From the IMG/VR virus record IMGVR_UViG_3300036958_000333, positions 208,849 through 272,848 of that record: a stretch of DNA of 64,000 nt; one strand, given 5' to 3'. The notes under the pieces are model-generated. The model was not told the DNA's origin, made no database searches, and was given only the letters and a program-made list of their open reading frames with translations. Position 1 is the first letter of the stretch. Each line of letters starts with the position of its first letter. Source of the DNA: a virus. Its lineage: Duplodnaviria; Caudoviricetes. Shown one piece after another: positions 1,732-64,000 of the stretch. Position numbers and translations under genes: made by a program.

Positions 1732-2525
1732 ATTTTATAAAATTTATTATTTGAATATTCCATAAGTTGAAGTATTTTATTTGTTTTTTTCATATTAATC
1801 TCGTCTCTCCATATTCGTAATCTTGTATATTTTTTCAACAAATCTGAATAGATTTTAATAAAATCTTTATTAATAAAATGATCTATTATATGTACTGAAA
1901 ATTCATTACCAGAATTATAAATCATTTCTATTCCATCTAGAAATTCATGCATATTAAACATCTTTCCAGTAGGATGACAAGAAACTATAAATTTTATTTT
2001 TTTATTTATAATTTTTTTTAAATTATTAATATTATATATTGAAGTAAACAATAATATATTTTTAGAATATTCTAAAAGTATATCAATTATTTTATTAATA
2101 TTTTTATGCAACAAAGGTTCGCCTCCAGCTACTTCTATTATTAAATTAGAATTAGGAAAATTAACTTTAAAATCATTAAATAATTTTAAAGTTAATTCTA
2201 CTGGAATACTTTCTTTCGATAAATTGTTTGGATATTTTACACCACAATATACACAATCATTAAGACAAGTAGTAACTGGATGAAAACTCATTCTTATTAT
2301 AGAATTATTATATTCACTTGTCTTTTCTGATCTAGTAGTATATGATAAATCACAATCTATCTTGCATTCTTTATAATATTTACAACTAAAATCATTGCAT
2401 AATTTAAAATTATTTTTTATTGAATATATCTCTATATTTTTATGAAAAAACTTATGGCATCTAAATACTTTCCAATCATCTGTTTTTTCAATAACAAACC
2501 AATTATTTCCTGCAGAACAATACAT
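1728..2525 (-). CDS. radical SAM protein with N-terminal SPASM/twitch-like Cys domain
   Basis: CLNDCVYC (CxxxCxxC), AGGEPLLH; N-terminal CSAG..WFVI..V..CH...C..C...CD; paralog of 19865..20701. Confidence 0.85.
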   Translation of the reverse strand: MYCSAGNNWFVIEKTDDWKVFRCHKFFHKNIEIYSIKNNFKLCNDFSCKYYKECKIDCDLSYTTRSEKTSEYNNSIIRMSFHPVTTCLNDCVYCGVKYPNNLSKESIPVELTLKLFNDFKVNFPNSNLIIEVAGGEPLLHKNINKIIDILLEYSKNILLFTSIYNINNLKKIINKKIKFIVSCHPTGKMFNMHEFLDGIEMIYNSGNEFSVHIIDHFINKDFIKIYSDLLKKYTRLRIWRDEINMKKTNKILQLMEYSNNKFYKI

Positions 2526-2528
2526 ATA

Positions 2529-3662
2529 TTAAATTTTTTCAAATTTTTTTTCAATTTCAACATTATTTGATGATTTATATAAACTATAAATTGTAAAGTT
2601 TTTACATCTATGTCCAATACAGTGTTTTTCATAATAAATATTAAAATTATATTTTTTTTGAAAAACTTGTTGTTTAATGAATTTTTTAATTTCATCAATA
2701 TGATCATTATTATCTATATGAATATTAAATGTTTCTAAATCTTCTTGTTGAATTATTTGTAAATAATCATGTTTTTTTATTATATCCTTTAATATTATTA
2801 ATTTATCAGTAAAATCTATTAATTCTCCTTTGTGGTTATATAAACATGTAATCATACATGGTTCAAAATTAAATTTTCTATAATAACTTCCACATTCACA
2901 TAAATGAAATTCGTTTTCTAAAGGATAAATATTATCTGGATTTCCATCTTTTTCATTCCACCAAGTATTATAAAAATTAAATAAATCTATTATTTTTCTA
3001 TCTTCTGTACAATAAAACAGATTTTCCATCCAATGCATGTTTCCATATGGACAAGTATAAAAAGCAGTACCTTCTTTCCAACTCCTCATTTGATTAACAT
3101 ATGGTATACCTAATTCTTTTAATATATTAAAATCAAAATATTTATTATCTGTTTCAGTTGTAGATATTACAGACGCTGTATTTTTAATCAAATCTATAAA
3201 ATTATCATATCTTAAAAGTTCATGTAATGTCATAGGAGTACATATATAACAAACATTGTTTAAATAATAAAAATCTTTTAAATTATTATATGGATTAATA
3301 TAAAAAGCTTTTCCCTCGGATTGTATTTCTTTGTCATTAATATATGAATTGATATTATATATTCTTAAATATAACTTGTTTTGTACATTATAAAATCTAT
3401 GCATATAATTCCATATCAAATCACATATAATTCTAAAATTTGGACCCCATTTATACATAACATGAGAACATTTAGTTGATCCATTAGATTTTAATTTTAC
3501 ATAATTACAAAAGTTATTTTTTAATTTTTTATATATTTTTTCTAGATCATATAAGTGTTTATATGAAATTTTATTTTCTTGAATAAAATATCCTAAATTT
3601 TTTATACTATCTATTGGATTATTTATATATTCTTCATATTTTTTTATATATTCGTTATACAT
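2529..3662 (-). CDS. CapK/phenylacetate-CoA ligase (PaaK)-like adenylate-forming protein, divergent
   Basis: KSNGST (degenerate TSGST loop), FYTCPYGNMH, CECG and LQIIQ C-terminal motifs typical of the PaaK/CapK family. Confidence 0.55.
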   Translation of the reverse strand: MYNEYIKKYEEYINNPIDSIKNLGYFIQENKISYKHLYDLEKIYKKLKNNFCNYVKLKSNGSTKCSHVMYKWGPNFRIICDLIWNYMHRFYNVQNKLYLRIYNINSYINDKEIQSEGKAFYINPYNNLKDFYYLNNVCYICTPMTLHELLRYDNFIDLIKNTASVISTTETDNKYFDFNILKELGIPYVNQMRSWKEGTAFYTCPYGNMHWMENLFYCTEDRKIIDLFNFYNTWWNEKDGNPDNIYPLENEFHLCECGSYYRKFNFEPCMITCLYNHKGELIDFTDKLIILKDIIKKHDYLQIIQQEDLETFNIHIDNNDHIDEIKKFIKQQVFQKKYNFNIYYEKHCIGHRCKNFTIYSLYKSSNNVEIEKKFEKI

Positions 3663-57863: not shown

Positions 57864-57937
57864 AAGCGCCTGTAGGAGTCGAACCTACTATCTTGAGTTT
57901 ATGAGACTCACGTATGATTCCGTTCTACCCAGGCGCA
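57864..57937 (-). tRNA. tRNA with CAT anticodon (Met/Ile2 class), atypical
   Basis: GCGCCT/AGGCGC acceptor, TGAGT-CTCATAA-ACTCA anticodon arm, GTAGG-TTCGACT-CCTAC T arm; no encoded CCA. Confidence 0.8.
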
Positions 57938-57941
57938 ATAA

Positions 57942-58379
57942 TTACCTTTTTAACTTTCGATTCTTATTAAATTCATAAACCTCTTCAATTGGAATAATTT
58001 TTGCAACATTTTTTCTTCTTTGTTTTTTAATGTTTTCTATTACATCTCTTATATAATTATCCATACTTAAACATTCTATTACGTCGCTTAATTTTTCATG
58101 ATCTTTAATAACTAATATTGGATATATAAGACATTTAAATTTCGATGATAATTGATTTTCTGAAATTACAATCTCGGCGTCTTCTACCGAATCAAAAACT
58201 TGCTCTTTGAAAACGGATATATTTGTAGGTATTTTGATAATATTGTCTAATAATATAATAACATACTTTTTCAATATAGGATAATTATTTACCATATAAT
58301 CCATATTAATATATTCATTATCAATATCATTATTATTAAAATCAAAATAAATCGATTTTTTTTTCAACAATTTCTCCAT
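57942..58379 (-). CDS. hypothetical protein
   Basis: start set at the ATG of MEKLL just after the upstream stop (ORF track starts at 58415). Confidence 0.6.
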   Translation of the reverse strand: MEKLLKKKSIYFDFNNNDIDNEYINMDYMVNNYPILKKYVIILLDNIIKIPTNISVFKEQVFDSVEDAEIVISENQLSSKFKCLIYPILVIKDHEKLSDVIECLSMDNYIRDVIENIKKQRRKNVAKIIPIEEVYEFNKNRKLKR

Positions 58380-58380
58380 T

Positions 58381-58656
58381 TTACAAATACTTACAATGAA
58401 TATTAATAAAAACATGGAACAAAAACATAATAATAGAAAATATAAAAATAAAAGTTCCTTGAGATTTCTTTTCTTCTTTGCTCATACCATATATTCCAAA
58501 TATTATACCAAGAAGTGGAATAAACATAGATCCAATAATTATACCAATAACAGACGCTATACCCCATTTTCTAGGAATTATAGATTTTCTACCACAAGCT
58601 GTACAAATCAAAGCATTATCGTCTGAAAACTTTCCACCACAATGAATGCAATACAT
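58381..58656 (-). CDS. zinc-ribbon membrane protein (two TM helices)
   Basis: CIHCG..CTACG followed by two hydrophobic helices; AAGGAGG Shine-Dalgarno. Confidence 0.75.
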   Translation of the reverse strand: MYCIHCGGKFSDDNALICTACGRKSIIPRKWGIASVIGIIIGSMFIPLLGIIFGIYGMSKEEKKSQGTFIFIFSIIMFLFHVFINIHCKYL

Positions 58657-58887: not shown

Positions 58888-59059
58888 ACTCTCTTTTAAA
58901 CCAACCACACTGAATATTATTCATTATAATAATATGAAACAACTCAAACCCTTGTTTTCCTAAATCATTTATTTCATTTTCTCTAATAGTTGCTGTAATT
59001 TCATTATTTTTTTCCTCTAATGTTTCTAAAGAAATAAATTTATATTCAAATCTTTTCAA
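58877..59059 (-). CDS. DUF4177-like small protein
   Basis: FEYK, INDLGKQGFEL, FKRE. Confidence 0.7.
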   Translation of the reverse strand: MKRFEYKFISLETLEEKNNEITATIRENEINDLGKQGFELFHIIIMNNIQCGWFKREYDG

Positions 59060-59577
59060 ATGATTTCCTTTACTATTCTTAATAAATCAGTATAATTTTT
59101 AGCCACTTTATATTTACCACTATAGTTTTTATTCCAAGGTTGTGAAAATAATATCTTATTATCTGAAATATTTCTTTCTATATTTCTAATATCATCATCT
59201 ACAAATATATCCATATAACATCTTTCTTTATCTTGTGTTAAAATAGTAGTTTTAAATAAATCAGGAAAATGCTTTTTTACCCATTTTATTTTATCAGAAT
59301 ATGTTATTGGAGAAAAAGAAGATGGTTTAGATATAAACCACACTTTCAATCCTAAATTTAATAAATTATTTATAAGAAAAGTTGATCCATTATATGATTT
59401 AAGATTATAAAAATATCCCTCCTTTCCATATATTTTTCTTATTTCATCTATCTTATCAGGAAATTGTTTTTCTAAATTATAATCTTTAATAGAATCGTAA
59501 TCTACTCCTAATTTTTTACAAATAGGAGACATAAAATCCACTATAACACCATCCATGTCTAAACCTATATGTTTCAT
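59056..59577 (-). CDS. 5'(3')-deoxyribonucleotidase (NT5C, HAD family)
   Basis: LDMDGV, K..WV..HFP, FVDD and QPWN motifs. Confidence 0.9.
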   Translation of the reverse strand: MKHIGLDMDGVIVDFMSPICKKLGVDYDSIKDYNLEKQFPDKIDEIRKIYGKEGYFYNLKSYNGSTFLINNLLNLGLKVWFISKPSSFSPITYSDKIKWVKKHFPDLFKTTILTQDKERCYMDIFVDDDIRNIERNISDNKILFSQPWNKNYSGKYKVAKNYTDLLRIVKEII

Positions 59578-59585
59578 TTATAATA

Positions 59586-59658
59586 TGGAGCGATCGGGAG
59601 GATTCCAACCCCCATCTTCGCTATGGATAAGCGATGTGTTAATTTACACCACGAACGC
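59586..59658 (-). tRNA. tRNA-Gly(TCC), non-canonical
   Basis: GCGTTCG/CGATCGC acceptor + T + CCA; TCGCT-TATCCAT-AGCGA anticodon arm; GGGGG-TTGGAAT-CCTCC T arm; D loop AAATTA. Confidence 0.8.
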
Positions 59659-59662
59659 AATA

Positions 59663-59869
59663 TTACTCCCATTCTATTATAGAATCTAAAACTCCAATTT
59701 CCTTTAAATATTTCTCTATATCAAATGTAGACATCCATTTCCAACCCAATAAATATTCATCAGTTATAGTTATAACCCAACGATTTCTATCTTTACTACC
59801 ATGATTTAAAATCTTCTTTATTTGATTTTCATTTAAATCACTTAATTTAATTTTAAAATTATTTTTCAT
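59663..59869 (-). CDS. hypothetical protein
   Basis: 68-aa ORF in a tightly packed run. Confidence 0.55.
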   Translation of the reverse strand: MKNNFKIKLSDLNENQIKKILNHGSKDRNRWVITITDEYLLGWKWMSTFDIEKYLKEIGVLDSIIEWE

Positions 59870-62994: not shown

Positions 62995-64000
62995 ATGAAT
63001 AAAATTAATTTAAATAATTTTATTATTAAAATAGATAATTATAATTATTTTAATACTTTTACGAAAAAAATTTTAAACATAAACGATAAAATTGAAAATT
63101 TTAATAAATTTTATTTTTTAAAAAACCAATCTATAAATCTTGTTTATAAACATTTATTTAAACCTATCAGTAAAATAAAAATTAGTATAATACCAACATT
63201 TAAATGTAATTTATCATGTGATCACTGTTATGTTAAAAATAATATAATTGATATAAATATCAATGAAAATATAAAAATTAATTCAAATAATATAAAATTA
63301 TTTGTAAAAAAAATATTAAATAAATATAATATTAATAATATAGATTTATCATTTACTGGCGGCGAGTGTTTATTAAATTATGATTTGTGTAATAATATAT
63401 TAATTAAATTAAAAAAGTTTCTTAAAAGTAATAAAATAAAATATTCTTCGGCAATAGCAACAAATTTATATATAGATTTAGATAATTATATTATTAATTT
63501 TTTAAAACAACTAGATAAGATAATGATAAGTGTAGATGGACCAGAATATATACATAATAATCAAAAAAAATCATATTTTAATAATGAAAACTCTTTTAGA
63601 AAAACAATACAAAATATAATTATATTACAAAAACACATCAATATAAATAAAATATATGTTCAAGGAGCTATTACTAAAAACGATCTTTTTAATAAAAATG
63701 TAATTTATGATTTTGTTTATATAATGAAAAAATTAAATATAAATGAAAACAATTTTTCTATAGGACACAGGTGTCCAACAAATATAAATGATGATAATTA
63801 TGAAATAGATTTAGAATATTTTAAAAATCATTTTTTTAAATTAAAAATCGGCCCATATTCATATTTTAATAGATGTTGCGGTTTTAGGTATATGTCAAAT
63901 TTTATTATTTCTCCAAACGGAAATATATCTACAAATTATCATGATATAAATAATTCTATTATAGGAAACTTAAATTCTACAATAAATGAATTAGAAATTA
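62995..64000 (+). CDS. radical SAM protein, anSME/SPASM-type (runs off the window; not in ORF track)
   Basis: hand translation from ATG 62995: PTFKCNLSCDHCY, FTGGECLL, ATN, ISVDGPEYIHN, RCCG..FIISPNG; open to the window end. Confidence 0.85.
   Translation, partial: MNKINLNNFIIKIDNYNYFNTFTKKILNINDKIENFNKFYFLKNQSINLVYKHLFKPISKIKISIIPTFKCNLSCDHCYVKNNIIDININENIKINSNNIKLFVKKILNKYNINNIDLSFTGGECLLNYDLCNNILIKLKKFLKSNKIKYSSAIATNLYIDLDNYIINFLKQLDKIMISVDGPEYIHNNQKKSYFNNENSFRKTIQNIIILQKHININKIYVQGAITKNDLFNKNVIYDFVYIMKKLNINENNFSIGHRCPTNINDDNYEIDLEYFKNHFFKLKIGPYSYFNRCCGFRYMSNFIISPNGNISTNYHDINNSIIGNLNSTINELEI

Follow-up and report, generated by a model that had tools for sequence, protein, structure and literature searches.

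The window, which is the whole stretch of 64,000 nucleotides of phage DNA analysed here, carries a tRNA-Gly(UCC) gene in which A33, a D loop free of G and an unpaired G56 are combined with an intact glycine cloverleaf, and which resembles an established phage tRNA design in decay more closely than a tRNA purpose-built as a non-ribosomal glycine donor. In the preferred reading, to which a probability of about 0.5 was assigned, the gene is an eroding tRNA-Gly with a swapped elbow pair that was made for the decoding of GGA and is by now weakly active or recently dead; these two states were judged to be about equally likely. Such a gene would be a translational tRNA under relaxed selection and not a redesigned non-ribosomal donor. 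The first-pass annotation had favoured the opposite view, i.e. a non-ribosomal glycine donor or a decoy resistant to anticodon nucleases rather than random decay.

The gene was called by ARAGORN as tRNA-Gly(tcc) (Table 1). The covariance-model score, which had been proposed as a check by the first-pass annotation, was determined with permissive filters on a 451-nt stretch and resulted in 43.5 bits with the Rfam model RF00005 (E = 4.3e-8), above the gathering score of 29. The default fast filters of Rfam skipped the gene and passed only the neighbouring tRNA-Met, indicating a weak primary-sequence similarity to ordinary tRNAs. With the Rfam tRNA model, the score ranked below those of 61 of the 65 phage tRNAs of five loci. 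For comparison, 71.1 bits were obtained for the canonical tRNA-Gly of contig L016, and 59.5 and 49.9 bits for tRNA-Gly of the G56 class described below. The minimum-energy fold determined with RNAfold was the cloverleaf with U4:U69 open. The GC content of the gene was 51% vs 19-22% in its flanks.

At least 14 public contigs, assembled independently from different samples, carry the tRNA-Gly and its flanks without a single difference, which rules out assembly errors as the source of the unusual bases. The public contigs of this phage (L006-L015, L354, L355 and L357) were 99.65-100% identical to the window over kilobases, and because of this near-identity the strain variation is uninformative on the constraint of the gene. 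Several other assignments were dismissed. The weak Rfam matches over the gene (DUF2693 RNA and sX8) were far under their own cut-offs, the mirror tRNA on the plus strand had no ARAGORN call and would have a pyrimidine at position 37, and no other register of the anticodon stem exists that would bring back U33.

Table 1. Coordinates of the tRNA-Gly(UCC) gene, its parts and its neighbours in the window.
Feature	Position	Strand	Basis and remarks
68-aa ORF upstream	59663..59869	(-)	ORF list and gene calls on public contigs; stop codon separated by 4 nt from the 5' end of the tRNA
tRNA-Gly(UCC) gene, 73 nt, CCA encoded	59586..59658	(-)	ARAGORN, Rfam RF00005, RNAfold cloverleaf, identical public copies
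U4 (59655) / U69 (59593), sole acceptor-stem mismatch	59593..59655	(-)	Non-standard in the Rfam alignment, unpaired in RNAfold
D loop AAAUUA, 6 nt, without G or C	59640..59645	(-)	Sequence reading
A33 (59628), then anticodon UCC (59627-59625)	59625..59628	(-)	Sequence reading
T arm; stem G49:C65, G50:C64, G51:U63, G52:C62, G53:C61	59597..59613	(-)	T stem GGGGG/CCUCC
T loop UUGGAAU, G56 at 59606	59602..59608	(-)	U54, U55, G57, A58 retained; G56 without D-loop partner
5'(3')-deoxyribonucleotidase (NT5C) gene downstream	59056..59577	(-)	phrog_2643, phrog_420, PF06941
tRNA-Met(CAT), internal control	57864..57937	(-)	ARAGORN; Rfam 45.5 bits; canonical GG D loop, UUCGA T loop

Read by hand, the stems of the tRNA-Gly comprise 21 pairs, of which 19 are Watson-Crick pairs and the other two are G51:U63 and the U4:U69 mismatch. 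The acceptor stem consists of G1:C72, C2:G71, G3:C70, U4:U69, U5:A68, C6:G67 and G7:C66, the D stem of GUGU/ACAC, and the anticodon stem of five Watson-Crick pairs. The D loop contains neither G18/G19 nor G18/C19, and A14, A15 and A21 are retained. The anticodon loop reads U32, A33, U34 C35 C36, A37, U38, the variable loop has 4 nt, and the 3' end is formed by U73 and the encoded CCA (59586-59588). The standard core tertiary positions are present: U8, A14, A15 with U48, A21, and G10:C25 with G45. The elements by which bacterial GlyRS recognizes its tRNA are G1:C72, C2:G71, G3:C70, U73, C35 and C36, and the full set was found in the tRNA-Gly. In place of the near-universal elongator features U33, G18-G19 and U54-U55-C56, the gene has A33, AAAUUA and G56. 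The structural description in the first-pass annotation was thereby borne out by the sequence: the four stems, U73 and the encoded CCA, the AAATTA loop lacking G18G19 at 59640-59645, A at position 33 (59628), the T:T mismatch of the acceptor as U4:U69, and the retention of GlyRS identity next to the loss of features of ribosomal tRNAs. The same annotation had also listed a change of C56 to G. The TTGGAAT loop with G56 is real; its description as an isolated loss did not hold, as position 56 covaries with position 19, with which it pairs.

The covariation was determined by scanning IMG/VR for a T arm with G56 followed by CCA. The scan resulted in at least 118 loci, in which ARAGORN called 268 tRNAs, 252 of them unique; since the sample was drawn with the G56 pattern, the class frequencies are biased, and the covariation is still clear. 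Among the matches listed, C56 was accompanied by a D-loop GG at positions 18-19 in 187 of 204 tRNAs and U56 by GA in 10 of 12, and all three tRNAs with A56 had GU. For G56, GC at 18-19 was found in 28 of 33 tRNAs, or in 31 of 33 when three that also contain GG were counted. Examples within the loci L058-L175 are L061, L064, L129 and L146. The 18-19 dinucleotide tracks position 56, which shows that the 19:56 pair is kept by compensatory change. C19:G56 is a recurrent phage variant of the G19:C56 elbow pair, and G56 in phage tRNAs is therefore an inherited design and not damage. The T loop UUGGAAU itself was present in 29 of the phage tRNAs retrieved from IMG/VR, among the matches listed.

The window tRNA has the G56 of this swapped-elbow class and lacks its C19. 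The closest counterparts among the matches listed were the tRNA-Gly(UCC) of L112 (3300011005_000001) and L084 (3300005077_000004), with which it shares the UUGGAAU loop, the GUGU strand of the D stem, the 4-nt variable loop, U73 and CCA, the overall identity being only about 60-65%. In a MAFFT alignment with these two, a 3-nt gap in the window tRNA lay exactly over their G18-C19-A20. Both counterparts keep G18-C19 in a D loop of 9 nt, whereas in the window tRNA this partner of G56 is missing. They also have U33 and C32/A38 in contrast to A33 and U32/U38, and their T stems were predicted to bind EF-Tu with -10.5 to -10.7 kcal/mol in comparison with -9.7 kcal/mol for the window tRNA. The simplest reading of the alignment is that the window tRNA derives from the swapped-elbow class and that the partner of G56 was probably lost via a 3-nt deletion.

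A33 and the G-free D loop have no precedent in the same sample. Among the matches listed, position 33 of the 252 phage tRNAs was U in 241 and C in 11 cases, A was never found, and a D loop without G occurred in 0 of 252. The tRNAs with C33 carried anticodons for Pro, Thr, Gln, Val, Cys, Leu, Ile and Glu, and were located at the IMG/VR loci L061, L064, L069, L100, L131 and L142. On L112, a viral contig with a dense tRNA cluster, a tmRNA was also detected (2316-2783, minus strand; RF00023, 76 bits).

Homologues of the tRNA-Gly were searched for in several collections. Neither INPHARED, IMG/VR and the GTDB genomes nor synteny in metagenomes yielded a homologous tRNA. The blastn search against 50,697 phage records gave none, and a pattern with fixed stems and free loops matched nothing in IMG/VR or the GTDB genomes. 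A looser anticodon-arm pattern gave 59 matches in the GTDB genomes, including one unrelated canonical tRNA-Gly. In IMG/VR, the matches listed for two patterns specific for A33 were chance matches, and no tRNA was present among the 116 matches listed for A33-UCC-A37 combined with the UUGGAAU T loop. Near-identical copies aside, the relatives of NT5C were about 50% identical, and on their contigs (L016-L024) no tRNA adjoined NT5C. A canonical, unrelated tRNA-Gly was located 3.8 kb from NT5C on L016, and none was present on L017-L024. On the phage contigs with the nearest NT5C relatives (L016:2604-11510 and L017:410-8675, 46-47% identity), NT5C is surrounded by many canonical tRNAs; L016 carries PTH2 and L017 a gene of the CCA-adding/poly(A) polymerase family, and ThiF genes are present too. 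The contigs with relatives of the 326-aa ORF located two genes upstream of the tRNA-Gly (65% and 56% identity) were too short or not syntenic. The nearest relative of the baseplate-wedge protein in IMG/VR was 25% identical.

The window is part of a jumbo myovirus with a GC content of roughly 22%. Proteins of the baseplate and tail are encoded in it (phrog_219 at 4.5e-36, gp25, Phage_base_V), along with fibre-like proteins of very large size and numerous glycosyltransferases, and the same phage was found in many wastewater and activated-sludge assemblies. The tRNA-Gly sits within a minus-strand operon in which the ATG of NT5C follows 8 nt past the encoded CCA. A scan for promoters and terminators was uninformative in this AT-rich DNA, with 59 sites vs 61 expected. 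The tRNA-Met is located 1.7 kb downstream of the tRNA-Gly and starts 4 nt past the stop codon of the ORF 57942-58415, which is the same spacing as that of the tRNA-Gly. Its canonical D and T loops indicate that the phage does not rebuild all its tRNAs. In the tRNA-Met, the acceptor stem is topped by a U1:U72 mismatch, the anticodon stem is rich in A/U, and CCA is not encoded; this tRNA is therefore not initiator-like, and either an elongator Met tRNA or an Ile tRNA of the lysidine type is conceivable.

In the 48 ORFs of the window used for codon counting (19,972 codons), GGA accounted for 651 of the 988 glycine codons (66%), ATA for 59% of the isoleucine codons and AGA for 85% of the arginine codons. 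AT-rich phages usually carry tRNAs for their favoured A-ending codons. The UCC anticodon matches the main glycine codon of the phage, which fits a translational origin of the gene.

Some features of the surrounding contigs were observed in parallel. Most of the public contigs end about 1 kb into a radical-SAM gene (window 62995-63999), where the window also ends; on L359 (978-3382) two tandem radical-SAM paralogues of 404 and 397 aa were found, which are probably the cause of the assembly break. In the strain variant L010 (1-428), a 100-aa ORF with a Sigma70_r1_1 match replaces the 92-aa ORF upstream of the tRNA-Gly, and the similarity of L010 to the window, compared from 59962 onward, begins about 300 nt upstream of the tRNA-Gly. 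A phage contig of 12.9 kb (L355/L358; GCA_029572595.1, JAKPVL010000200.1) was binned in a public MAG, which is either a hint to the host or a binning artefact.

The affinity for EF-Tu was predicted from the additive free-energy terms of the T-stem pairs 49:65, 50:64 and 51:63 (Table 2 of PMC3239215). The predicted value for the tRNA-Gly was -10.1 - 0.4 + 0.0 + 0.8 = -9.7 kcal/mol, or -10.3 kcal/mol when the tRNA-Thr-context value was used for G51:U63. The corresponding mean of bacterial Gly-UCC is -10.8 kcal/mol (sd 0.68), and the value predicted for the staphylococcal cell-wall tRNA is -9.5 kcal/mol (PMC3239215). The 12 phage tRNA-Gly from the sampled loci had a mean of -10.7 kcal/mol (sd 0.45), none of them being weaker than -10.0 kcal/mol. 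The tRNA-Gly of the window was predicted to bind 1.1 kcal/mol more weakly than the Gly-UCC mean, the outlier limit being 1.3 (PMC3239215). The Kd for EF-Tu-GTP would be expected to be about 6- to 8-fold weaker than that of a typical tRNA-Gly. The weak predicted value is the one quantitative point favouring a non-ribosomal role of the tRNA-Gly, and it would equally result if AT pressure had turned just one base, C63, into U.

In the preferred reading, the tRNA-Gly would originally have provided extra decoding capacity for GGA, the dominant glycine codon of the phage. Its ancestor would have belonged to the phage tRNA class in which the elbow was swapped from G19:C56 to C19:G56. The loss of 3 nt from the D loop would have taken G18 and C19 and left G56 unpaired, and further changes would be those of U33 to A, the U4:U69 mismatch and the weakened T-stem pair G51:U63. 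The tRNA-Gly would be co-transcribed between two ORFs and would probably be excised by RNase P together with 3' trimming to the encoded CCA. Since none of the glycine identity elements known from bacteria is damaged, the host GlyRS probably still charges it. The charged tRNA would be expected to be a poor ribosomal substrate, as it lacks both the elbow contact and the U-turn uridine and its T stem is predicted to bind EF-Tu weakly.

The elbow pair and U33 are affected at the same time as the acceptor and EF-Tu stems. Lesions in four modules at once fit relaxed selection under AT pressure, and they are explained more readily by erosion than by a single adaptive redesign. In the elbow, a pair is broken that is maintained through covariation in other phage tRNAs, and neither A33 nor a G-free D loop occurred in the 252 phage tRNAs sampled. 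On the other hand, 20 of the 21 stem pairs, the GC content of 51%, the intact identity set and the core bases argue against a long neutral decay, and stems and GC content retained between such AT-rich flanks indicate that the decay is recent or that the gene is still selected. The earlier claim against random decay was thus partly upheld: the stems and the GC content speak against long neutral decay, while the joint relaxation of several unrelated constraints fits erosion. As only the outer corner is lost and the core is kept, it is equally conceivable that the present form is tolerated or has even been selected. Ribosomes accept tRNA-Pyl and many mitochondrial tRNAs although these have no G18, G19 and C56. 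By analogy with these, the loss of G18, G19 and C56 alone is compatible with ribosomal use, and the activity of the tRNA-Gly could be near normal.

The deviating bases could also have been favoured by selection. In one alternative, the gene is a working GGA decoder that was reshaped to escape host tRNA-targeting defences at the cost of translational efficiency. A33 together with the altered 32/38 would remove the cleavage site or the recognition sequence of an anticodon nuclease, and the missing elbow would deprive nucleases or modifying enzymes that act on the T loop of a handle. Of the four loop positions outside the anticodon, three (32, 33 and 38) differ from those of the G56-class tRNA-Gly, and changes in the anticodon loop at sites cut by nucleases have been described for other phage tRNAs (PMC10264068; see also PMC11555353); however, the mutations of this sort described so far keep U33, and no anticodon nuclease specific for tRNA-Gly(UCC) was found in the literature searched. 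The maintained stems, identity set and GC content and the match of the anticodon to the main glycine codon are in accordance with a working decoder, yet A33 occurred in none of the 252 phage tRNAs sampled, no tRNA was present among the 116 A33-UCC matches listed for IMG/VR, and the U4:U69 and G51:U63 changes would have no part in evasion. This explanation was considered unlikely. A dead tRNA could instead be kept as an RNA-processing signal that separates the upstream message from that of NT5C by the cutting of the tRNA-like fold with RNase P and 3' nucleases, comparable with the tRNA punctuation of mitochondria, and no aminoacylation would be needed. The tight packing of the gene, which is separated by 4 nt from the stop of the ORF 59663-59869 and by 8 nt from the start codon of NT5C, the same 4-nt spacing of the tRNA-Met after its upstream ORF, and the best preservation of the acceptor and T arms with the encoded CCA would suit such a signal. 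The intact anticodon arm and glycine identity elements would be unneeded for it, though, and the loss of the elbow would weaken rather than preserve the recognition by RNase P, which makes the proposal quite unlikely.

The donor proposed by the first-pass annotation would be charged by GlyRS, would be withheld from both EF-Tu and the ribosome, and would serve as substrate for a phage or host transferase that depends on aminoacyl-tRNA, e.g. in peptidoglycan, lipid or glycan-peptide modification. The D loop without GG, as in the staphylococcal tRNAs, the retained glycine identity set and a predicted EF-Tu value close to the staphylococcal one agree with this role, and the window contains a large surface-glycan module and an amidoligase-family protein. 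Against it, the T-loop change is at position 56 and not at 55, where U is kept, and is accounted for by the C19:G56 class of phages. The T-stem pairs are unlike the staphylococcal A:U set, and the predicted weakening of 1.1 kcal/mol is below the outlier limit of PMC3239215. The search for Fem/GNAT transferases suggested in the same annotation yielded no candidate, as no FemAB, GNAT, L/F-transferase, MprF-type or cyclodipeptide-synthase family was present among the 25 listed of the 27 Pfam families in the 53 ORFs of the window. The nearest unannotated gene, the 326-aa ORF, looks glycosyltransferase-like in the ESM Atlas. A33 is not needed in a donor, and the share of GGA among the glycine codons speaks for decoding, so that the donor hypothesis was judged to be highly improbable. 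A more general idea is that the tRNA-Gly was deliberately stripped of the handles read by host enzymes, namely of U33 and the elbow pair and perhaps also of its tight binding to EF-Tu; it would then either survive a tRNA-cleaving defence and go on supplying GGA decoding, or deliver glycine to a non-ribosomal acceptor. This idea is regarded as rather unlikely.

If the gene is only eroding, as preferred here, it gives a snapshot of the death of a phage tRNA under extreme AT pressure, in which the stems outlast the loops and the tertiary contacts. If it was stripped by selection, it would be the first natural case in which selection keeps an elongator-like tRNA of bacterial type that has A33 and no D-loop/T-loop pairing. 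If it is maintained, bacterial translation or a phage-specific pathway would be able to use a tRNA without U33 and the elbow pair, and the gene would be a natural starting point for studying the resistance to tRNA-targeting defence nucleases. For annotation, the value of the result is that default Rfam filters overlooked a tRNA-Gly gene, and G56 in phage tRNAs is to be understood as one partner of the covarying pair 19:56 rather than as damage.

The non-proteinogenic tRNA-Gly(UCC) of staphylococci (NP1-3, and Ia/Ib of S. epidermidis), which are the glycine donors for FmhB/FemA/FemB, have in common with the window tRNA the UCC anticodon, the glycine identity, a D loop lacking GG, a T loop that departs from the canonical form, and a T stem whose predicted EF-Tu binding lies on the weak side. 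Their T loop begins with UGC/UGU and thus has G55 and no pseudouridine, position 19 is occupied by dihydrouridine, and the first three T-stem pairs are A49:U65, U50:A64 and A51:U63; the FmhB identity determinants are scattered over the D and T arms, and the lineage is restricted to staphylococci (PMC7826273). In contrast to their G55 and U33, the window tRNA keeps U55 and has the change at G56 as well as A33, and its T-stem pairs are G:C, G:C and G:U instead of A:U, U:A and A:U. The staphylococcal tRNAs are accompanied by Fem transferases, whereas no Fem-like gene was found in the window. The likeness to the tRNA-Gly used by FemXAB, on which the first-pass annotation had relied, is therefore superficial, position 56 being changed rather than 55 and the T-stem pairs being different.

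The nuclease-resistant phage tRNAs of PMC10264068 resemble the window tRNA in being encoded by phages and in having an anticodon loop off the consensus. In those cases the changes are located at known cleavage sites of known nucleases, and U33 is kept. Short D loops without G18/G19 and T loops without C56 are shared with tRNA-Pyl and the tRNAs of metazoan mitochondria. These are conserved over many genomes and have U33 and a compensating core of their own, whereas the window tRNA is a singleton with the standard bacterial core.
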